Source: a bacterium UBP2_UBA5202 (GTDB lineage Bacteria > Edwardsbacteria > AC1 > EtOH8). From it: a stretch of 64,000 bases of DNA. The position numbers were made by a program, and so were the translations under genes. The first letter of the stretch is position 1; every line of letters begins with the position of its first letter. The stretch covers positions 4 through 64,003 of the forward strand of contig DHVS01000038.1 of NCBI GenBank assembly GCA_002412795.1, read 5' to 3'. The notes below the pieces were generated by a model. It was not told where the DNA came from, did no database searches, and was given only the letters and a program-made list of their open reading frames with translations. Positions 2,774 to 35,202 of the stretch are shown here, in pieces.

Positions 2774-4258
2774 TCAGGAAACTTTTGTTCCGGTAATCAT
2801 CCCGGCCGCGATCCGTCCCGACTGGTAAATGGTCGGCAGACCCGAGCCGGGATGGGTGCCGCCGCCCACCAGGTAGCAGTTCCTGAATTCCTCAAAACGG
2901 TTGTGGGGTCTGAAGGACAGCATCTGGGTTATCTTGTGGCTGAGGTTGAAGGTGGCCCCGTTATAGATGTTGTATTCATGCTGCCAGTCGGCCGGGGTGA
3001 TCACCTTCTCCACCTCGATGTGCTGTTCCAGGTCCTTCAGCTCGGTCTTGTCCTGGATGATCCTGATCACCAGGTCGCGGAAGCCCTTCTTTTCCTTGGC
3101 CCAGTCTATCCCCGAGGTCTGATTGGCGATGGGCACCAGCACGTAGATGGCAGACTTCCCGGCCGGGGCCAGGGTGGGGTCGGTGATGCTGGCGTTCTGG
3201 ATGTAGACCGACGGGTCCCGGGGCAGGGTCTTGGTCCTGACTATCTCGTCCACGTTGTCCCGGTAGCTTTGGGCGAAGATCACGTTGTGGTGCGGGATGT
3301 CGTACTTCCTGTTCACCCCCAGGTAAAGCATGAAGGTGGAGCAGGAATACTCCATCTTCTTCAGCCTGGCGTCGGTGTATTTTTTCCGGTCCTCCGGCTT
3401 GACGATACTGCTCATGGCCCAGGCGAAATCGGGGTTGATGATCACCTGGTCGGCCTCTATGGACCGGCCGTTCTCCAGCAAAACGCCTTTGGCAGTGCGG
3501 TCCTTAACCTGCAATTGTTTCACCGGGGTGTTCAGGTGAATCCGTCCGCCGTCCTCCTGGATCACTTTGGCCATGGCTTCAGATATCTTATTGAGCCCGC
3601 CGATGGGGTGGTAGATGCCGAACTTGTGCTCGATGATCGACAATATGGTGAAGGTGGCCGGGCACTGCCAGGGCGACATCCCCAGGTACTTGGCCTGGAA
3701 GGTCATGGCGATCCGCAGGTCGTCGTGGGTGAAGTAGCTGGCCAGCCGGTCATAGACCGAGGCGAATGGATCCAGCCGGGGGATGGCTTTCAGGAAGCGC
3801 GGTTTCAGGTACGAGAGCAGGCTGTCATACGGCACCTTCAAACAGGGATAGACCCGGTCGAACTTCTTTCCCTCGTCCTTTTTGAACCGCAGATAATTCC
3901 GTCCGTCCCCGGGGAAGGCCCGCTCGACCTCCTCCACCATCCTTTTTTCATCGCCGGTGGGGAAGAAGTCCCTGCCGCCCTCGAACCGCAGGCGGTACAT
4001 GGGATCAATGCGTTTCAGGTCCAGGTACTTGTTCATGTCCCGGCCGGCGTCGGCGAAGGACTGCTCCAGCACCTCCAGCAGCATCAGGAAAGTGGGGCCG
4101 GTGTCAAAGGTGTACTGGTCCAGCCTGATGGCCTGGTTGCGGCCGCCCACCCGGCTGTCCTTTTCGAATATATCCACCTGATAGCCTTTGTTGGCCAGCT
4201 GCATGCCGGCGGTCAGCCCGCCCGGCCCGGCCCCGATGATGATGACTTTTTTGCTCAT
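2774..4258 (-). CDS. FAD-dependent oxidoreductase of the phytoene desaturase (CrtI) family
   Basis: N-terminal IIGAGPGGL dinucleotide-binding motif and a 494-aa length typical of CrtI-family amine oxidases. Confidence 0.75.
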   Translation of the reverse strand: MSKKVIIIGAGPGGLTAGMQLANKGYQVDIFEKDSRVGGRNQAIRLDQYTFDTGPTFLMLLEVLEQSFADAGRDMNKYLDLKRIDPMYRLRFEGGRDFFPTGDEKRMVEEVERAFPGDGRNYLRFKKDEGKKFDRVYPCLKVPYDSLLSYLKPRFLKAIPRLDPFASVYDRLASYFTHDDLRIAMTFQAKYLGMSPWQCPATFTILSIIEHKFGIYHPIGGLNKISEAMAKVIQEDGGRIHLNTPVKQLQVKDRTAKGVLLENGRSIEADQVIINPDFAWAMSSIVKPEDRKKYTDARLKKMEYSCSTFMLYLGVNRKYDIPHHNVIFAQSYRDNVDEIVRTKTLPRDPSVYIQNASITDPTLAPAGKSAIYVLVPIANQTSGIDWAKEKKGFRDLVIRIIQDKTELKDLEQHIEVEKVITPADWQHEYNIYNGATFNLSHKITQMLSFRPHNRFEEFRNCYLVGGGTHPGSGLPTIYQSGRIAAGMITGTKVS

Positions 4259-4697: not shown

Positions 4698-5378
4698 TCA
4701 TATCAACTTGTTTTCAGCGAAACTATAGTGCCCGGCCCTTCCCACTATGATGTGGTCCAGCACCCGGATGTCCAGCGCCTTGGCCACGCTGACGATGGAG
4801 TCGGTCAGCTGCCGGTCCTCCGGCGAGGGCTGGCAGTGCCCGCTGGGGTGGTTGTGCACCAGGATCAGCCCTGCGGCGTGGAGGTTCAGGGCCTCCTCGA
4901 TGATCCGCCGGGGATAGACCGCCGCCTTGTCCACCGTGCCCTGGTTGATGGTCTTGTATCTCAGCACCTCGTTCTTGGTGTTGAGATAGATGCAGAGGAA
5001 GGCCTCGTTGGGCAGTCCGGCCATCTTGGTCCGGGCGAAAGCCAGCACCGACTGGGGCGAGGAGAGGGCGTCCCTGGACATCATCCCGTCCGCCAGGTAC
5101 TGCTCGGACAGGTGCTTGGCCAGCTTGATCAGCACCGCCGGGGATGTTCCTATACCCTTGACCTTCTCCAGGTCTTCGGGGGTGGCGTCCAGCACTCCGG
5201 CCAGGCCGTCGAACCTGGCGATCAATTCCTTGGCCAAGGGCTTTACATCGCGGGGGGGCAGGGCGTAGGTCAGCAGCAGTTCCAGCAGCTCGTAGTCGTG
5301 CAGGCCTTCTCCGGCGGTCCGGCGGAACTTTTCCTTCAGTCTCTGGCGGTGCCCCGATGTCTGTTCTTTCTGGTCCAT
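4698..5378 (-). CDS. radC: RadC-family JAB domain protein
   Basis: HNHPSG JAMM motif and a helix-hairpin-helix N-terminal region. The start is placed at the internal Met (MDQKEQ...) rather than the ORF-track start at 5468. Confidence 0.75.
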   Translation of the reverse strand: MDQKEQTSGHRQRLKEKFRRTAGEGLHDYELLELLLTYALPPRDVKPLAKELIARFDGLAGVLDATPEDLEKVKGIGTSPAVLIKLAKHLSEQYLADGMMSRDALSSPQSVLAFARTKMAGLPNEAFLCIYLNTKNEVLRYKTINQGTVDKAAVYPRRIIEEALNLHAAGLILVHNHPSGHCQPSPEDRQLTDSIVSVAKALDIRVLDHIIVGRAGHYSFAENKLI

Positions 5379-10390: not shown

Positions 10391-10741
10391 TTATTTCCGG
10401 TGCGGATCTTTTTGTTTTCTTTTGCTTTGTTTTAAGCCCGGCCCCGGCCACCGGAATCTTTCAAGATCAATATTTTCATGAAGGCCCAAAGCCACTCCTT
10501 CGCTTTCCAGCAGGGCCCGCTGTTCCTCGTAGCCGTATCCGGGTTTAAGGGAGATCGTTCCCCGGCTGTTGATCACCCTGTGCCAGGGAAGCTGTTCCTT
10601 GCCCGAGCTGGAATGAAGCAGCCAGATGACCGCCCGGGCGCCTCTGGGATTGCCGGCCAGGGCCGCGATCTGGCCGTAGGTGGCTACTTTGCCGCGGGGG
10701 ATGCGTTTGATGAGGGAGATTATCTGGGAGGAGAAGGTCAT
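10391..10741 (-). CDS. Alkyltransferase-like protein (ATL), a catalytically inactive MGMT-fold DNA damage sensor
   Basis: MGMT DNA-binding domain with PWHRV in place of the PCHRV active site, the hallmark of Atl1/YbaZ. Confidence 0.7.
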   Translation of the reverse strand: MTFSSQIISLIKRIPRGKVATYGQIAALAGNPRGARAVIWLLHSSSGKEQLPWHRVINSRGTISLKPGYGYEEQRALLESEGVALGLHENIDLERFRWPGPGLKQSKRKQKDPHRK

Positions 10742-10845
10742 GTGATATGCTGCGGTTTATTGTTGGGGTCCGGCAGTCCTTGTCCCTGTCTTTAGCGGGA
10801 TGCACAAAGCGGCGGCCATTGTTGGCCGCCGCTTCTGTTTTCCGT

Positions 10846-11607
10846 TTACACCTTCTTCTCGCCCTTGTCAATTATCTGGGCAAAATACTTCATGAACTCT
10901 ATGGGCAGGGGGAAGATGATGGTGGAATTCTTCTCCACTGCGATCTCGGTCAAAGTCTGGAGGTAGCGCAGCTGCACGGTCACCGGTTCCTGGGCCATGA
11001 TCGAAGCGGCATCCTTGAGCTTGGCCGAGGCCTGGAACTCGCCGTCGGCGTGGATCACCTTGGCCCGGCGTTCGCGCTCGGCCTCGGCCTGCTTGGCCAT
11101 GGCCCGGCGCATGCCCTCGGGCAGGTCAATGTCCTTGACCTCCACCGCCGAGACCTTGACGCCCCAGGGGTCGGTGCGCCCGTCTATCACCTTCTGCAGG
11201 GTCAGGTTGATCTTCTCCCGGTTGGTTAGCAGTTCGTCCAGTTCATGCTCGCCCAAAATGGAGCGGAGGGTGGTCTGACCCATCTGGCTGGTGGCGTACA
11301 TATAGTCCTCCACCGCGATGATGGCTTTGTCCGGCTGGAACACCTGGAAGTACATTACGGCGTTGACCTTCACCGAGACGTTGTCCTTGGTGATCACCTC
11401 CTGGGTGGGCACGTCCAGGGCGATGGTGCGCAGGGTCACCTTGACCATCTTCTCGAACAGGGGGATCAGGATGATCAGTCCCGGGCCCCGGGTGCCGACG
11501 TAGCGGCCCAGTCTAAAGACCACGCCCCGCTCGTATTCCCGCAGGATCTTGAAGGTGTTGAGCAGGATGAACAGGATGAAGATGATCAGAGCTATGGTAC
11601 CGGTCAT
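10846..11607 (-). CDS. SPFH/band-7 (stomatin-like) protein
   Basis: N-terminal TM helix followed by a prohibitin-homology domain and a coiled-coil ([11 protein letters not shown]). Confidence 0.85.
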
Positions 11608-11682
11608 GGTTGGTTCCTCCTTATGTTTGGTTGAAATTTACTAAGCGTAAAGCGTGAAGCGGATAGCGTCAAGCGTTAAGCA

Positions 11683-12054
11683 TTACGGGGTATTTTCCTT
11701 CAGACCAACGATCATTTTCCATAACATCCGGCCCACTTCCTGGGATAGGGCATATAACGTGTTAAAATCTTCAGTCTTGAGATATCCAATATCCTTTGCT
11801 AACATTAATTGGGTTTGGAATTCTGCCAGTGATCCGTTGGCGGTATAAAGAAATTGAATATATTCTTTTCTGTTTTTCCGGCCATAACCTTCCGCAATGT
11901 TTGAAGGAATTGAAACCGAGCACCTTCTGATCTGTGAGGTTAAACCATAATCTTCATTGGCTGGAAATAATTTGGTGATCTGGTATAAAGCTACACATAA
12001 TTTGTAGGACTTTTGCCACACTATCAGGTCGGCAAAACTCTTTGTTGGTTGCAT
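11683..12054 (-). CDS. Four-helix-bundle protein (23S rRNA intervening-sequence / Avd-like family), copy 1
   Basis: Family signature W....L......T..FP........QIRR...SI..NIAEG. It lies between the SPFH and NfeD genes. Confidence 0.8.
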   Translation of the reverse strand: MQPTKSFADLIVWQKSYKLCVALYQITKLFPANEDYGLTSQIRRCSVSIPSNIAEGYGRKNRKEYIQFLYTANGSLAEFQTQLMLAKDIGYLKTEDFNTLYALSQEVGRMLWKMIVGLKENTP

Positions 12055-12103
12055 ACAATCCTTATTCTATGCTCAAACAACGCTTTTCGCTAAACGCTGA
12101 CCG

Positions 12104-13381
12104 CTATACGCTCTTGGTTACCTTAAGCGTCATGCCTTTTACTTCCAATACCTTGATCTTGGTGCCTTCGGCGATCTCGGTCTCCGACCAGGCGCTCCAG
12201 TGGGTTCCTTCCACAAACACGCTTCCGCCGTCCTTGTTCACCAGGGTCCGGGCGTCGCCCTCCTGGCCCAGCAGGCCCTTGTCGCCGGAGACGGGTTTGG
12301 TCCTCAATGTCTTGATGGACAGCCAGACCCCGATGATGAAGAAGGCCGCGGTGGCCGCCACCACCGGGATGATAACCTGGAGCGAGGCCCGCAGGGCCGG
12401 GTCCGGCGAGTTGAACAGCATTACCGATCCAATGAACATGGCAACTATCCCTCCTATGCTAAGTATTCCGTGCGAGGCTATTTTGACGTCCAGGATAAAC
12501 AGCACGATGGCCAGTATTATCAGCAGCATTCCGGCGTAGCTGACCGAAAGGGTCTGGAAGGCGAAGAAGGCCAGGATCAGCGAGATGGCGCCCACCACCC
12601 CGGGCAGTATGGCCCCGGGATTGGAGAACTCAAAGTAAAGGCCCAGCAGCCCCAGCATGAAGAAGATGTAGGCGATGTTGGGATCGGAGATCACGGACAG
12701 GAACCTGTCCCGCCAGTTCATCTCTACTGTCACCGTTCGGGCCAGCTTGATGTTCAGGGTCACAGTGTCCCGGTCCATGGCTATCTTCCGGCCGTCCAGG
12801 GAATCCAACAGGGCGGAGGTGTTGGGGGCCACCAGGTCAATGACTTTGCGTTTTAAGGCCTCTGTCTCGGACAGAGAGACGCTGTGGCGGACGGCGGAGT
12901 CGGCCCAGGCCACGTTGCGGCCCCGTTTCTCGGCGATGGAGCGGATGTAGGCCGCGGCGTCATTTGTTACCTTGCCGGACATGGTGCTGTCCATCTGTCC
13001 GCTCTGCCCGATGGAGACCGGGTGGGCCGCCCCGATGCTGGTTCCCGGCGCCATGGCCGCCAGGTGGGCCGACATGGTGATGAAGGCCCCGGCCGAGGCC
13101 GCCCGCGATCCCTGGGGCGCCACGAACACTATCACCGGGACCGGCGAGGCCATGATGCTCTTGATCACCTGGCGCATGGACTGGTCCAGCCCGCCCGGGG
13201 TGTCCATCTCGATGATCAGGCACTCGGCCTGCTCCGCTTGGGCCCGTTCAACGGCCTGGACCATGAACCGGGCCGAGGCCGGGCTGACGGCGCTTTCCAC
13301 CCGGGCCACCAGTACCTGGGAGGCTTCGGCCATTCCGCTAACTAAAATTAGCGAAAGAACAAACAATAACAACTTCTTCAT
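12104..13381 (-). CDS. NfeD-family membrane-bound serine protease (ClpP-fold), partner of the SPFH protein
   Basis: N-terminal ClpP-like domain, central TM helices, and a C-terminal OB-fold NfeD domain. Confidence 0.8.
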   Translation of the reverse strand: MKKLLLFVLSLILVSGMAEASQVLVARVESAVSPASARFMVQAVERAQAEQAECLIIEMDTPGGLDQSMRQVIKSIMASPVPVIVFVAPQGSRAASAGAFITMSAHLAAMAPGTSIGAAHPVSIGQSGQMDSTMSGKVTNDAAAYIRSIAEKRGRNVAWADSAVRHSVSLSETEALKRKVIDLVAPNTSALLDSLDGRKIAMDRDTVTLNIKLARTVTVEMNWRDRFLSVISDPNIAYIFFMLGLLGLYFEFSNPGAILPGVVGAISLILAFFAFQTLSVSYAGMLLIILAIVLFILDVKIASHGILSIGGIVAMFIGSVMLFNSPDPALRASLQVIIPVVAATAAFFIIGVWLSIKTLRTKPVSGDKGLLGQEGDARTLVNKDGGSVFVEGTHWSAWSETEIAEGTKIKVLEVKGMTLKVTKSV

Positions 13382-13499
13382 AATATCCTCTTCTCATGAA
13401 TACTGAATACTGAAGATAGAATGCCAGCAAAAATCTGAGATCACAAAACTATTCTGTATTCAATATTCCAAATTCAGTCTTCTGTTTTGGTCTCGAGTG

Positions 13500-14273
13500 T
13501 CAGTACTGGAAGTGCTTGATCTTCTCGCCCATCTGGCCGATCTCGGTCATGCTTTCGATGCCGATGTCCAGGTGCAGTCTGCTGAACTTCTTGGTGACCT
13601 CCCGGTCGCTCCGGTCGGTCTTGATCCCGTGGGGCACCATCGGGATGTCCGAGACCAGCAGCAGGGCGCCCCGGGCGATCTGGTTGGCGTGGCCCACGAT
13701 GAACAGGGTGGCTGTTTCCATGTCGATGGCGATGGCCGTCAGCCTTTTCAGGTATTTCTTGAAAGGCTCGTCCCATTCCCAGACCCGGCGGTTGGCGGTG
13801 TAGATCACCCCGGTGCGGTAATCCAGGTTCCGCTCCTTAAGCTTTTCCGAAACGAACTTGTGCAGTTTAAAGGAGGGCAGGGCCGGCACCTCAGGCGGCA
13901 GGTAGTCGTTGCCGGTACCCTCGCCCCTGATGGCCCCGATGGGCAGGATGAAATGGCCCAGCTCGGTGGTCTTTTTAAGCCCTCCGCATTTTCCCAGGAA
14001 CAGCACCCCCTTGGGGTGCCGGGCCACCAGCAGGTCCATGATGGTGGCGATGTTGGGGCTGCCCATTCCCAGGTTCACTATCGACAGGCCCTTGCTGTTG
14101 GTGGCGGCCTGCATCGGCCGGCCCTGACCCTTGATCTCGCAGTTGAAACGCTCGGCGAAGCGCTGCAGGTAGTCGTCGAAGTTGGTCAGCAAAATGTAAT
14201 CGCCGAACTGGTCGATCTCCATCCCGGTGTAGCGGGGCAGCCAGTTCTTTGCTATGTCTAATTTTGTCTTCAT
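13500..14273 (-). CDS. Nucleoside phosphorylase-family protein (AMP nucleosidase-like)
   Basis: PNP/UDP phosphorylase-fold motifs (GMGSPNIA, IAIDMETA). Confidence 0.65.
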   Translation of the reverse strand: MKTKLDIAKNWLPRYTGMEIDQFGDYILLTNFDDYLQRFAERFNCEIKGQGRPMQAATNSKGLSIVNLGMGSPNIATIMDLLVARHPKGVLFLGKCGGLKKTTELGHFILPIGAIRGEGTGNDYLPPEVPALPSFKLHKFVSEKLKERNLDYRTGVIYTANRRVWEWDEPFKKYLKRLTAIAIDMETATLFIVGHANQIARGALLLVSDIPMVPHGIKTDRSDREVTKKFSRLHLDIGIESMTEIGQMGEKIKHFQY

Positions 14274-23030: not shown

Positions 23031-23112
23031 TCTTTTGCCACATAAAGCACATAAACCGTTATAACGTTACTACGTAATAACGTTAAACGTGGTGCTTAAA
23101 TTCGGTAAAGCC
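23031..23112 (+). promoter_or_regulatory. Shared upstream boxes: A (GCCACAnAAAGCACATAAA) and B (CTTAAATTCGGT), about 50 nt before the asrA-like start
   Basis: The same two boxes recur at 26301-26354, ahead of the first antiporter-like hydrogenase gene. Box B is 47-50 nt from the ATG in both places. Confidence 0.45.
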
Positions 23113-23152: not shown

Positions 23153-24238
23153 ATGCCGGAAAAGACGGTTTATTCGCTGGCCAAGGCCCAGGTGCCGGAG
23201 CTGATCGCCAAACTGCTTAAGTCCCGGAACGAGGTCTGGGCGCCGGTGAAGGGCGAGGGCGGCGACACCTTTTTGGCGCAGATCGATTCGGCCAAGCAGA
23301 TAGCCCCCGAATATGTCAACGGGTTCCTGGGGGCCAAGCGCTATGTGTTCCCCCAGCTGGAGGAGCTGTTCCGCTTCAAGAAGGGCAAGAACGGAACCAC
23401 CCTGCAGACCGAGACGGATCAGCCCCGGGCGGTGATCTGGGGCATCCGGCCTTGCGACATGTCGGCGGTCAACTATTTCGACAGCTTCTTCGGCCAGGGC
23501 GCCAAGTCCGGCCCCGGCTGGAAATCGGGCGATCCGCTGCCTGACCCGCTGTACGAAAAGCGGCGGGAGCGGGTGGTGTTCATCACCCTGGCCTGCAACC
23601 AGGCCGGGCCGAAATGCTTCTGCGTCTGCACCGACTCCGGGCCGTTCCTCTCCAAGGGTTTTGACATCCAGCTGACCGACCTGGGAACCTATTATCTGGT
23701 GGAAGTGGGGAGCACCAAGGGGGAGGAGTTCGTCAAGGAATTCAAGACCCTGTTCGGGACCGGGAACGAGAACGACGTCAAGCTCCGCCGGAAACTGGAA
23801 ACGGAGGCCGAGAAGACCTTCCAGCAGCCGGTCAGTTTCTTCGCCAAGGCCATGCGCAAGCTGGACGGGGGCAAGGTGGACCAGAAGTTCTGGGAGAAGG
23901 TGGCCGGGTACTGCATCGGCTGCGGCGGCTGCATCTACGTCTGCCCCATGTGCAGTTGCTTTGACGTGGACGACAAAATGGAGTCCGATACCGATGGCCT
24001 GCGCTACCGGTCCTGGGACACCTGCGACTTTGCCGGGTTCACCCGCGAGGTCTCGGGACACAACCCCCGGGCCTCCAGGGCCGACCGCCGGAAACGCTGG
24101 TTCTACCACAAGCTGTCCATGGACTATCTGGAAAAGAACCCGGTGATCGGCTGCGTGGGCTGCGGCCGCTGCGTGGTCACCTGCCCCGGCGAGGTGGACA
24201 TGGCCACGGTGGTGAGGTGGATGCGAAAGGTCGAGTGA
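23153..24238 (+). CDS. 4Fe-4S dicluster protein of the AsrA / sulfhydrogenase beta-subunit family
   Basis: Two ferredoxin-type motifs (CIGCGGCIYVCPMC; CVGCGRCVVTCPG) and an N-terminal region typical of AsrA-like proteins. Confidence 0.7.
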   Translation: MPEKTVYSLAKAQVPELIAKLLKSRNEVWAPVKGEGGDTFLAQIDSAKQIAPEYVNGFLGAKRYVFPQLEELFRFKKGKNGTTLQTETDQPRAVIWGIRPCDMSAVNYFDSFFGQGAKSGPGWKSGDPLPDPLYEKRRERVVFITLACNQAGPKCFCVCTDSGPFLSKGFDIQLTDLGTYYLVEVGSTKGEEFVKEFKTLFGTGNENDVKLRRKLETEAEKTFQQPVSFFAKAMRKLDGGKVDQKFWEKVAGYCIGCGGCIYVCPMCSCFDVDDKMESDTDGLRYRSWDTCDFAGFTREVSGHNPRASRADRRKRWFYHKLSMDYLEKNPVIGCVGCGRCVVTCPGEVDMATVVRWMRKVE

Positions 24239-27858: not shown

Positions 27859-27936
27859 GCCCGACCCCTCCCTTGATCCCTCCCCGCTGCGGAGAGGGAT
27901 AATATGAAGGTTGAAAAGGTTATAACCTGAGTTAGG

Positions 27937-28130
27937 AAGGCTGTAACTACGGTTAGCAAGGTCCTGACCAAGGCCGGAAGGATTCTAACCAAGGTTAGCA
28001 AGGTTATTACCTAGGTCGGAAGGGTTATTACCTAGGTCGGAAGGGTTATTACCTGGGCCGGAAGGGTTATTACCTAGGTCGGAAGGGTTCTTACCTGGGT
28101 TACAAGGGTTATTACCATAGTTAGCAGCTT
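27937..28130. repeat. Array of about nine degenerate 21-bp tandem repeats (consensus aagggttattacctaggtcgg)
   Basis: Directly visible head-to-tail units. They are preceded by related AAGGTTG(A/T)AAAGGTT motifs at 27908-27925. Confidence 0.85.
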
Positions 28131-30846: not shown

Positions 30847-30947
30847 ACCGGGGAAACCGGTTGAAAAGGTTGGACGAACATACGGTTGAAGATGTTGAAA
30901 AAGTTGATGTGTCGTTCTGATGAAAATGGTGAGGTGATTGAAAAAAC

Positions 30948-31367
30948 ATGACGGTTAAGAGATTTGAGGATCTGAAAATCTGGCAACAGGCCAAAGAGCT
31001 GGCCAACTTGATTTATGATTTAACCGGAACAAACGCTTTCAAAGGCGACAGGAGTCTTACAGATCAATCCCGCCGGGCGGCAGTTTCGGTAATGGCCAAT
31101 ATTGCCGAGGGATTTGAGAGAGGCAGCAACAAAGAATTCATTCAGTTTTTGTTTATTGCAAAAGGTTCGTGCGGAGAACTGAGAAGCCACCTGATATTAG
31201 CTCAAGACCGCTGTTATATAACCCCGGTACAACATACGCAAGCCAGAGAAATGGCTTTAGGGATTTCCACGATGGTGTATAACTTCATCACATATTTACA
31301 AAACACTAAAGTTAAAGGCAAGAGGTGCCAAACCTCTTCAACAATTTCAACAAAAGCAACATCTTAA
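30948..31367 (+). CDS. Four-helix-bundle protein (IVS/Avd-like), copy 2
   Basis: The same family signature as copy 1 (IWQQA...RAAVSVMANIAEGFERGS). Confidence 0.8.
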   Translation: MTVKRFEDLKIWQQAKELANLIYDLTGTNAFKGDRSLTDQSRRAAVSVMANIAEGFERGSNKEFIQFLFIAKGSCGELRSHLILAQDRCYITPVQHTQAREMALGISTMVYNFITYLQNTKVKGKRCQTSSTISTKATS

Positions 31368-31382
31368 ACATTCAGGGATACA

Positions 31383-33062: not shown

Positions 33063-33287
33063 TGGAAATGTCCGGCAGGAAGCAACGATGACGATGGAGA
33101 AGCAATAATATAAGCAGGGCAACGTTGGAGAGGTCCAACAGGGAGGCAGGCAACGATAAACGTTCCATCGTTGAGCGGCTTCCAAAGCAAGACTTCTCAA
33201 ACATTGCAATACCGGAAATATGGCATCTCCATCAAATAAAGTTAAGAAGAACAGATCTTTTTATAAATAATACAAGTTAAAAGCGAT

Positions 33288-34187: not shown

Positions 34188-34243
34188 GGCATTTACAATT
34201 CGGGATTTACCATTTGGAAACTTTCCGGTGGAGAGAAGAGTAA

Positions 34244-34657
34244 ATGGCGACTTTTAAGAAATTTGAAGAAGTGGATATTTGGATAAAAGCGCGTGAATTG
34301 ACCAAGCGGATTTACGAAGCCTCTCGCAAAGGGGCTTTTGCCAAGGATTATTCTTTGGGCGACCAGATGAGGCGGGCATCGGTGTCGATCATGTCAAATA
34401 TTGCCGAGGGTTTTAATCGTGGCGGGAACAAAGAGCTTGTCCAATATTTGGCAATCGCCAAAGGATCTGCGGCAGAGATACAAAGCCAGTTATATGTCGC
34501 ACTTGACCAACAGTATATACCCAAAGAAGTATTTAACGATTTGTACAATTTAACAGACCAAATTGCAGCCGGAATATTTTCTTTTATAATTTATCTCAAT
34601 AAAAGCAATATCAAAGGGATAAAATATAAATACGCCCAAATTCCAAATGGTAAATAA
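34244..34657 (+). CDS. Four-helix-bundle protein (IVS/Avd-like), copy 3
   Basis: Family signature (DIWIKA...[19 protein letters not shown]). Confidence 0.8.
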
Positions 34658-34679
34658 ATAGCAGGAAAGAATTGCTAAC

Positions 34680-35135: not shown

Positions 35136-35145
35136 ACCACAAAGA

Positions 35146-35202
35146 CACAAAGGCACTATTTTCGTAATCGTAAATTATTTTGTGTCTTAGTGCCTTAGTG
35201 GT
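35146..35202. promoter_or_regulatory. Inverted-repeat motif ACACAAAGGCACT...AGTGCCTTAG in the hycF / hyfE-like gap
   Basis: It recurs at 40635-40685, and in degenerate form at 26353-26378. Confidence 0.4.

Follow-up and report, generated by a model that had tools for sequence, protein, structure and literature searches.

The bacterium UBP2_UBA5202 (contig DHVS01000038.1) carries, between its nfeD gene and the normally adjacent partner gene for a stomatin-like membrane protein of the SPFH (Band 7) type, a small open reading frame (ORF) enclosed by two arrays of short repeats, and the question raised by this locus is what kind of element stands there. The window, i.e. the whole stretch of 64,000 nucleotides that was analysed, had previously been given a sequence-only reading, in which the ORF was described as a four-helix-bundle gene inserted as a cassette, with the geometry of the intervening sequences (IVSs) of ribosomal RNA (rRNA) or, alternatively, of a miniature element with terminal inverted repeats (TIRs). 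What that reading had found is real and its interpretation was essentially right, the interest of the locus coming from the wider pattern to which it belongs. The element is considered here, with moderate confidence and by analogy with rRNA systems, to be an IVS-type cassette in a messenger RNA (mRNA) operon, probably processed by RNase III. The novelty at the level of the locus is that an element of a known type is found in an mRNA operon.

Anatomy of the cassette and its predicted stem

The protein family in question will be referred to as IVP (Pfam 23S_rRNA_IVP, also S23p), and the three cassettes of the window as W1 (nfeD-SPFH), W2 and W3 (both in a hydrogenase operon). The features of W1 and its surroundings, from nfeD onwards, are the following:

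12104-13381, minus strand: nfeD, 425 aa, with all three NfeD domains (Pfam PF25145, PF24961 and PF01957)
12070-12114, minus strand: 5' arm of the cassette, with a core of five tandem heptamers at 12079-12112
12059-12063, minus strand: Shine-Dalgarno-like AAGGA of the IVP gene, ending 4 nt ahead of the ATG, in the loop and 3' of the 5' arm
11683-12054, minus strand: IVP/S23p-type four-helix-bundle gene, 123 aa, GC 0.395 (PF05635, TIGR02436)
11642-11683, minus strand: 3' arm of the cassette, starting at the IVP stop codon (Tandem Repeats Finder: period 7, 5.6 copies)
11616-11622, minus strand: Shine-Dalgarno sequence AAGGAGG of the SPFH gene, outside the stem and kept in loci without the cassette
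10846-11607, minus strand: SPFH/Band 7 (stomatin-like) gene, partner of nfeD (Pfam Band_7)
10807-10834, strand not assigned: GC-rich 12-bp hairpin directly after the SPFH stop, the sole terminator-like site in 10700-13600

The 123-aa product matches PF05635 with an E-value of 4e-42 and 143 bits (cutoff 33.8) and the NCBIfam family TIGR02436 (four helix bundle protein) with 134.5 bits (cutoff 24), both assignments agreeing with the 372-bp four-helix-bundle ORF first described between nfeD and its SPFH partner. The nearest solved structure is that of Xcc0516 (2GSC, E 4e-23), with five chains in the deposit. The AAGGA at 12059-12063 would be the Shine-Dalgarno sequence of the gene, to judge from its position. 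As had been remarked, the 5' flank overlaps the nfeD stop: the last two codons of nfeD and its TAG fall within the first heptamer of the 5' arm (AAG AGC GTA TAG). The cassette is AT-rich, its GC content of about 0.38-0.40 standing some 16-20 points below that of its surroundings (about 0.60 in the neighbouring genes and 0.56 in the window).

No sigma-70-like promoter and no intrinsic terminator was found on the sense (minus) strand from nfeD to the end of SPFH, up to the hairpin at 10807-10834, which probably marks the end of the operon. Since the cassette holds neither, its co-transcription with nfeD and SPFH is plausible. An insertion in rRNA (23S helix 9, 25 or 45) does not apply to W1, whose neighbours are nfeD and SPFH. 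A search of the window against Rfam gave zero matches, and no transposase or integrase was found in or beside any of its three cassettes. An identity as a defence system was rejected, PADLOC having returned zero matches.

The two flanks quoted in the sequence-only reading as inverted tandem repeats of AGCG type are present as written, and the unit is a strict heptamer, AGCGNNN, repeated 5-6 times at 11644-11681, where AGCG is read from the plus strand, and 5 times at 12079-12112, where it is read from the minus strand. In sense orientation, the 5' array reads AGCGTAT AGCGGTC AGCGTTT AGCGAAA AGCGTTG, and the 3' array ACGCTTG ACGCTAT CCGCTTC ACGCTTT ACGCTTAG. Three-unit matches (AGCGN3AGCGN3AGCG) number 6 in the 64-kb window, all of them in these two arrays, with 0.00 expected (100 shuffles).

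The minimum free energy fold of the minus-strand RNA from 12130 to 11620 closes the ORF with a stem formed by both arrays, and an inverted-repeat search returned arms of 34 nt, 76% complementary, with 401 nt between them. Taken alone (RNAduplex), the arms form an interrupted duplex of 32 bp with -45.1 kcal/mol, against -21.1 +/- 4.1 kcal/mol for shuffled arms (z -5.9). The z-scores of whole-cassette folds are weak (-1.8 for W1, -0.3 for W2 and -1.8 for W3), because the ORF dominates the energy, and only the arm-arm duplex is informative. The stem expected between the flanks is therefore backed by the predicted fold, by the arm duplex and by the covariation of the arms among relatives.

Insertion and conservation at the nfeD-SPFH spacer

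A scan of metagenomes with NfeD provided 28 related nfeD loci for comparison. Ten of the more distant ones (L105, L106, L110, L111, L113, L116 and L118-L121; NfeD 40-62% identical) have a bare nfeD-SPFH spacer of 17-155 nt, with neither ORF nor array. The closer clade (NfeD 78-88% identical) carries the cassette or its remains, and also includes L102, with a clean-empty spacer. Orthologous cassettes, with IVPs 61-80% identical, stand at the same site and in the same orientation in W1, L098, L099/L100, L101 and L122. The close relative L097 has a solo array (3279-3313; AGCTTAT AGCATAT AGCGTAT AGCTTAC AGCTTAT), with no ORF and no partner arm, and the nfeD stop codon again lies within the array. 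Other genes occupy the spacer in L096, L103 and L104.

The claim that the cassette had been inserted thus finds its empty sites in the distant loci and in L102, and the relatives which have the gene at this site have it with flanking repeats. In a neighbour-joining tree of NfeD (no bootstrap support) the IVP-bearing loci are distributed over both subclades, with empty outgroups, a pattern most simply explained by a single insertion in an ancestor, with several losses or replacements since. From the array-free outgroups and L102 it follows that, at the available resolution, the arms arrived with the ORF. An empty site was also sought at the species level: in all 15 contigs that encode the identical SPFH or IVP protein, the cassette is there too (99.6-100% identical), and these filled sites gave no informative variation.

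Between W1 and its orthologues, synonymous differences are saturated (pS 0.77-0.87), with a pN of 0.14-0.31, and the dN/dS of the IVP gene in L099-L101 is 0.06. The IVP protein is therefore functional and under purifying selection. The same synonymous saturation implies that the non-coding arms have been kept well beyond neutral decay. Furthermore, the arms covary: they are of the AGCG/CGCT type in W1, L099 and L101 and of the AGGG/CCCT type in L098 and L122, both sides having changed across the units. Cognate arm duplexes reach -36 to -45 kcal/mol, against -16 to -36 kcal/mol, mostly -16 to -27, for duplexes between arm types. Arm complementarity has thus been maintained, either by selection or by conversion between arms, past a divergence that randomises neutral sequence.

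Two observations at this spacer are given in their own right. In the IVP gene of L098 (2993-3349), codon 12 has changed from AAG to an in-frame TAG while the arrays are intact; the gene may be a decaying pseudogene or contain a sequencing error. In L103, a second copy of approximately the 31 last nfeD codons (71% identical) lies at 4807-4899, 1 kb downstream of the intact gene and after an inserted 321-aa gene, which suggests that the insertion duplicated the nfeD 3' end.

Other IVP cassettes in the window and across phyla

A tblastn search revealed that the window has two more IVP genes, both co-oriented with a hyf/Mrp-type [NiFe]-hydrogenase operon and placed in its spacers. Together with an array pair that encloses no ORF, their cassettes are as follows:

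30858-31369, plus strand: W2 cassette, between hyfB-like and NuoCD-like genes, with its ORF at 30948-31367
34191-34659, plus strand: W3 cassette, between HyfC/NADHdh-like and 4Fe-4S genes, with its ORF at 34244-34657
13395-13488, minus strand: ORF-less inverted pair of heptamer arrays in the operon of W1, between nfeD and a PNP_UDP_1 gene (identified by repeat pattern)

W2 has arrays of period 9, made of GTTGAANNN units on the 5' side (30858-30907) and TTCAACNNN units on the 3' side (31331-31369). W3 has arrays of the ATTNNNN/NNNNAAT type and period 7 (5' ATTTACA ATTCGGG ATTTACC ATTTGGA, 34191-34219; 3' CCAAATT CCAAATG GTAAATA, 34636-34659), a perfect 15-nt inverted repeat in the cassette and an arm duplex with a z of -3.9 against shuffles. 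The three IVPs are only 36-46% identical to each other, and their arrays differ. The ORF-less pair at 13395-13488 consists of five NNNGAAT and four ATTCNNN-type units (sense ACAGAAG ACTGAAT TTGGAAT ATTGAAT ACAGAAT ... GCATTCT ATCTTCA GTATTCA GTATTCA). As a whole it folds no better than shuffles (z 0.06), and it is taken as real on account of its repeat pattern and because L096 and L103 have kept it, their unit number differing by one; it is absent from L098-L102.

Other repeats were observed in the window. Between the 4Fe-4S gene and that of the next subunit, at 35138-35200, two arrays of 8-nt units form an inverted pair without an ORF (CCACAAAG ACACAAAG ... TTGTGTCT TAGTGCCT TAGTGG), their polarity being reversed with respect to the usual one (5' arm C/A-rich); related sequence occurs in L127 and L129. 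In the intergenic region upstream of the hydrogenase operon (27916-28116), a AAGGTTATTACCTAGGTAGG-like unit of 21 nt is repeated in tandem about 9.6 times, with a super-period of 42 nt, and a period-8 array on the palindrome AACGTT (CGTTATAA x4.4) is found at 23048-23088, about 65 nt upstream of an ORF starting at 23154.

The generality of the design was established on 80 IVP loci from a scan of one genome per GTDB species, the best of them only 57% identical to the window protein. They span Acidobacteriota, Planctomycetota, Bacteroidota, Firmicutes, Chloroflexota, Patescibacteria, Proteobacteria, Cyanobacteria and other groups, and none of the 80 is located in rRNA. Complementarity between upstream and downstream flanks exceeds that of dinucleotide shuffles with z>3 in 60 loci and z>5 in 52, the mean duplex energy being -64 kcal/mol for cognate and -44 kcal/mol for mismatched flank pairs. 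At least one flank has a tandem array in 75 loci at a self-match of at least 0.60 (11% of control segments) and in 53 at a self-match of at least 0.68 (1.3% of control segments). Arrays found at the 0.60 threshold have period 7 in 45 of 56 upstream and 54 of 67 downstream cases, the remainder having mostly period 8. The distance from the end of the 5' array to the start codon is typically about 20 nt, and the 3' array begins at the stop codon.

Moreover, the arrays have a polarity on the sense strand, with a G-rich 5' array in 40 of 45 loci and a C-rich 3' array in 50 of 55, and YAG is present in 36 of 45 consensus units. Pairing itself gave no clear sign of a preferred strand: G-U pairs occur in the two orientations 324 and 312 times across the 80 loci, and the energies of sense and antisense duplexes compare with a p of 0.15. 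As many as 50 of 74 IVP genes are co-oriented with both neighbours, with median gaps of about 50-60 nt. The GC content of the ORF lies below that of its flanks in 76 of the 80 loci (mean -8 points) and tracks that of the host (r 0.90). No IVP match was found in 50,697 phage records, and there were 45 matches in plasmids, mostly of Nostocales. A Calothrix plasmid has an IVP gene, annotated as S23 ribosomal protein, flanked by TAGGGTG x4 and CTACACC x4.

Two proposals on the units were discarded. A correspondence between five units per arm and a pentameric protein fails in that the median of 5.0 is the minimum that the detection window can return. A role of the period-7 TAG as a universal three-frame stop was rejected as well, only 30% of the 5' arms closing all frames; 13 of 56 have no stop codon at all, and the reverse complement closes three frames in 21%. 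As a separate observation, matches to the Acido-Lenti-1 small RNA lie within a few kb of the IVP cassettes of L068 and L040 (Acidobacteriaceae), with two copies in L068.

These data bear on the possibility that the arrays are meaningless simple-sequence slippage or chance. Heptamer repeats are prone to slippage, and unit number varies between relatives, as it does between strains of Coxiella. Against this stand the zero three-unit matches expected by chance in the window, the paired, inverted and covarying state of arrays kept across saturated synonymous divergence, and the recurrence of the same design in 75 of 80 loci from many phyla, by which this reading is effectively refuted.

A different proposal is that the arrays are binding sites of the IVP protein, a homopentameric toroid resembling Avd that would read the 7-nt lattice on RNA or DNA, with roles in autoregulation, in the control of processing or in nucleoprotein assembly. 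Avd (bAvd, PDB 4DWL), the accessory protein of diversity-generating retroelements (DGRs), has a homologous pentameric four-helix-bundle fold, to which the window IVP gives a weak match (PF22296, E 6e-12); it forms a positively charged barrel and has a defined RNA element as its ligand within the DGR complex. Among solved homologues of IVP, 2GSC and 2RLD each have five chains in the deposited structure, and Xcc0516 is a homopentamer. The specificity of the arrays for the neighbourhood of IVP genes at the stricter threshold, the conservation of the period and of a short YAG core rather than of the whole sequence, and purifying selection on the protein are also consistent with binding. Nevertheless, orthologues 70-80% identical have AGCG or AGGG units, which argues against sequence-specific recognition, and array pairs without an ORF exist (13395-13488, 35138-35200, L079 B|C and L051 Z|W, the latter two being described below). 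We regard binding by the IVP protein as quite unlikely to be what the arrays are for. As to the identity of the window protein, that of the DGR accessory protein itself was rejected, since NF033474 gives 41.2 bits (equivalog cutoff 80), and no reverse transcriptase or pair of template and variable repeats adjoins any of the three window cassettes.

Related cassettes are found in different spacers of related genomes. Three relatives (NuoCD 83-87% identical) have an IVP gene between NuoCD and NADHdh, where the window has a 225-nt spacer without an ORF; their IVPs are the closest relatives of that of W2 (58-64%) and have the same GTTNGA arrays, W2 itself standing at hyfB|NuoCD. This unusually long spacer between the NuoCD-like and HyfC-like genes (33063-33287) contains scattered GCAACG/CGTTG inverted repeats and may be a decayed cassette, three relatives having an IVP cassette in exactly that spacer. 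The W2 site is occupied in L127 by an outer-membrane beta-barrel gene and in L129 by a HEPN/nucleotidyltransferase pair together with a decayed IVP N-terminus (MAKKNYEDPMIWQQD*). At the W3 site, two relatives keep the IVP gene, followed by an inserted prolyl-tRNA synthetase gene, and in a third a 5' heptamer array is left over, followed by a methyltransferase gene. The spacers of the hydrogenase operon in relatives L126, L127 and L129 are insertion hot spots, with toxin-antitoxin-like HEPN/nucleotidyltransferase pairs, methyltransferase, outer-membrane beta-barrel and prolyl-tRNA synthetase genes, several of which adjoin leftover heptamer or nonamer arrays.

Among the 80 loci, the order A-B-IVP-C in L066 corresponds to A-IVP-B-C in L079, with IVPs 85% and gene B 89% identical, and the B|C spacer of L079 (5770-5940) has an ORF-less pair of the same TGTATA arrays where its sister L066 has the IVP gene. 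Similarly, X-Y-IVP-Z-W in L051 corresponds to X-Y-Z-IVP-W in L069, and the Z|W spacer of L051 (4910-5060) has an ORF-less YAGTTC pair where its sister L069 has the IVP gene. Hence the suggestion that a single element exists in two states, as an ORF-less heptamer hairpin and as an IVP cassette. The pairs L052/L073, L023/L051 and L031/L046 have IVPs 62-75% identical with unrelated flanking genes. Array-unit distance and protein distance are weakly correlated (Mantel r 0.18, 0/500 permutations), as expected if arms and ORF travel together. A differential loss of paralogous copies could mimic hopping; under either process, the cassette duplicates or relocates, often into the next spacer.

These displacements are what would be expected if W1 were a mobile cassette at the DNA level, its arrays being recombination ends or single-stranded DNA hairpin sites of a non-autonomous element, moved by a host enzyme or with the assistance of the IVP protein, and the RNA stem being a by-product. 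The similar IVPs in different spacers of L066 and L079 and of L051 and L069, the position of W2 relative to its closest relatives, and the three pairs sharing an IVP without sharing flanking genes all point in this direction, as do the low GC content in 76 of 80 loci, the equally good sense and antisense pairing, the Mantel correlation and the older literature, in which IVSs were proposed as transposition relics or mobile elements. The points on the other side are that the window cassettes have no transposase or integrase in or beside them, that their boundaries show no visible target-site duplication and that their divergence in protein and arrays indicates no recent burst. In addition, the nfeD|SPFH copy is uniform in the 15 conspecific contigs and orthologous across saturated synonymous divergence, the phage records gave no matches, and paralogue loss may account for the apparent hopping. 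On the whole, such a DNA-level origin of the design is considered unlikely.

For the same reasons, the alternative of a miniature TIR element offered by the sequence-only reading has lost ground: its inverted arms and the presence of related cassettes in different spacers stand, whereas a transposase, a target-site duplication and near-identical copies were not found, and at nfeD-SPFH it is weakened by the long vertical inheritance of the cassette, evident from its saturated synonymous sites. A test for miniature inverted-repeat transposable elements found no target-site duplication on comparing filled with empty sites, where the repeats blur the boundaries, no near-identical copies within the 64-kb window and no cognate transposase in or beside the cassettes. 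The integron gene cassette was also rejected as a model, given the two symmetric arms, the occurrence of single scattered cassettes in operon spacers and the lack of any integrase within 4 kb in L001-L015.

Known systems, proposed processing and wider meaning

The reading of W1 as an IVS-type cassette has a precedent in the IVS of Coxiella burnetii 23S rRNA, an insertion of 428 nt in helix 45 with a 28-bp terminal stem, in which 3-4 tandem GACAGAT heptamers, their number varying between strains, lie upstream of the S23p start, and RNase III cuts have been mapped in the stem, at the first repeat (PMC4990558). The geometry of rRNA intervening sequences recognised at the outset has, therefore, a counterpart with matching heptamers, stem and S23p ORF. 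As in Coxiella (Warrier et al. 2016, Afseth 1995), the S23p/PF05635 ORF of W1 lies in the loop of a long terminal stem (28 bp there, about 32 predicted here), with tandem heptamers just upstream of its start (GACAGAT x3-4 there, AGCGNNN x5 here), a GC content below that of the host and a sporadic distribution; the Coxiella element is co-transcribed with its host gene, as W1 would be with its neighbours. Unlike it, W1 stands between two protein-coding genes of an operon instead of within 23S rRNA, its ORF has its own putative Shine-Dalgarno sequence and is under strong purifying selection, and RNase III cleavage, demonstrated in Coxiella, is assumed for W1 by analogy. The Coxiella S23p ORF is regarded by its authors as untranslated and decaying, with a function that is not known, and the same work recalls old proposals of IVSs as transposition relics or mobile elements (PMC4990558).

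The 23S IVS of Leptospira, the founding example for the family name, is reported, as far as its citation in PMC4990558 conveys, to have an ORF of more than 120 aa, inverted repeats, excision by RNase III and evidence of horizontal transfer (Ralph and McClelland 1993/1994). It lies in rRNA, and W1 in mRNA. In bacteria of the candidate phyla radiation (CPR), the IVP domain occurs inside rRNA insertions and has been termed functionally uncharacterised. A literature search found no link between IVP genes outside rRNA and heptamer arrays; most subscription journals lie outside its coverage, and a prior description is possible.

Intercistronic stems processed by RNase III are known from T7 early mRNAs and rRNA precursors, and comparable structures from the intercistronic hairpins formed by repetitive extragenic palindromes and bacterial interspersed mosaic elements (REP/BIME) in enterobacteria. 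Like the stem predicted for W1, they are long and imperfectly paired and lie within polycistronic RNA, where they can divide one cistron from the next and leave half-stems with a protective effect; W1 differs in that its stem encloses a conserved gene and is built from heptamer arrays. Heptamers of the short tandemly repeated repetitive (STRR) type were reportedly described in cyanobacteria by Mazel and colleagues in 1990. The GGGNATC heptamer repeats of Xanthomonas and Nostoc have been interpreted as quadruplex-forming (PMC4692102), and the paired 7-8-nt arrays of Geobacter metallireducens, named 'global regulator sites', have been read as binding sites of IHF/HU type (PMC2700814). All of these are tandem units of about 7 nt, typically in 4-5 copies, over-represented between co-oriented ORFs and transcribed, often with two arrays converging from opposite strands. 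There is a resemblance between TTCTGAA, the class-3 unit of Geobacter, and the ORF-less pair at 13395-13488. Unlike the window cassettes, most such pairs are ORF-less, and neither PMC4692102 nor PMC2700814 mentions IVP/S23p genes. A G-quadruplex reading of W1 was rejected, its AGCGNNN units being without GGG tracts, of which at least four would be required; G-tracts do occur in the arrays of other IVP loci, e.g. L091 and L016.

Such repeats give rise to another interpretation, in which the arrays are intercistronic hairpins of the host, of REP/BIME, Geobacter or Xanthomonas type, that stabilise mRNA or process it, the IVP ORF having landed in the loop, so that the arrays would be its target and not a component of the element. 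It is favoured by the ORF-less pairs of the same design in spacers of this genome, by those found where a relative has the IVP gene (L079 B|C and L051 Z|W), and by the frequency in Geobacter metallireducens and Xanthomonas of paired 7-8-nt arrays between co-oriented genes, described with no link to IVP. The outgroups and L102, with no array at all, and the IVP-bearing relatives, every one of which has both arms at nfeD|SPFH, speak against it; so do the solo array of L097, nested in an IVP-bearing clade, the rarity of arrays away from IVP genes in the same loci, and the fact that the Coxiella heptamers belong to the inserted IVS and not to the rRNA (PMC4990558). A host origin of the arrays is consequently held to be very doubtful.

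If W1 is an RNase III-processed cassette of IVS type, its workings may be outlined as follows. About five heptamers make up its 5' array, a putative Shine-Dalgarno sequence and an IVP ORF of about 120 aa come next, and complementary heptamers form its 3' array. The unit would have entered the nfeD-SPFH spacer once, in the ancestor of the clade, being vertically inherited afterwards with occasional decay or replacement. With no promoter or terminator of its own, it would ride on the pnp-like/nfeD/SPFH transcript, in which pairing of the arrays would enclose the ORF in a loop closed by about 32 bp of imperfect stem. If the rRNA IVSs of Coxiella, Leptospira and Salmonella are a guide, RNase III would most likely cut this stem, setting free a monocistronic IVP mRNA closed by the stem and leaving nfeD and SPFH on uncoupled messages. 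The architecture, the insertion, arm covariation, selection on the protein and the generality of the design are established by the sequence comparisons; co-transcription and cleavage are inferred.

Several findings weigh against this interpretation. A plain RNase III stem does not account for a 7-nt period that is nearly universal, nor for the YAG core or the G-rich 5'/C-rich 3' polarity; together with relocation, these features give room for a lattice read by a protein or for a recombination site at the DNA level. Sense and antisense duplexes being equally stable, DNA or the RNA of either strand could be what the pairing constraint acts on. The arms of W2 pair no better than mononucleotide shuffles (z -0.1). 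Finally, the Coxiella ORF is thought to be untranslated and decaying and the present one is selected, so that the biology of the two may differ.

A joint reading may be advanced tentatively, as a possibility that we would not yet count as probable. It takes the cassettes as a widespread, hitherto unrecognised class present in many phyla, mainly in operon spacers, with rRNA IVSs as a rare case and the STRR, Xanthomonas GGGAATC and Geobacter repeats as ORF-less relatives or remains, a pentameric, Avd-like IVP reading the 7-nt lattice with its YAG core and either controlling processing or mediating short-range relocation of the cassette from one spacer to its neighbour.

The origin and function of IVSs and of the S23p ORF have been open since about 1990, and the class of cassettes in operon spacers allows them to be studied where they are common and where the ORF is selected, if those in rRNA are the minority. 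The heptamer repeats of cyanobacteria, Xanthomonas and Geobacter may be tied to one gene family. A portable, stem-insulated expression cassette tolerated both in operons and in rRNA could, moreover, be a useful design. Thousands of genes annotated as 'four helix bundle protein' or 'S23 ribosomal protein' are probably operon-splitting cassettes, and their stems are probably hidden RNA-processing sites which uncouple partner genes such as nfeD and SPFH.

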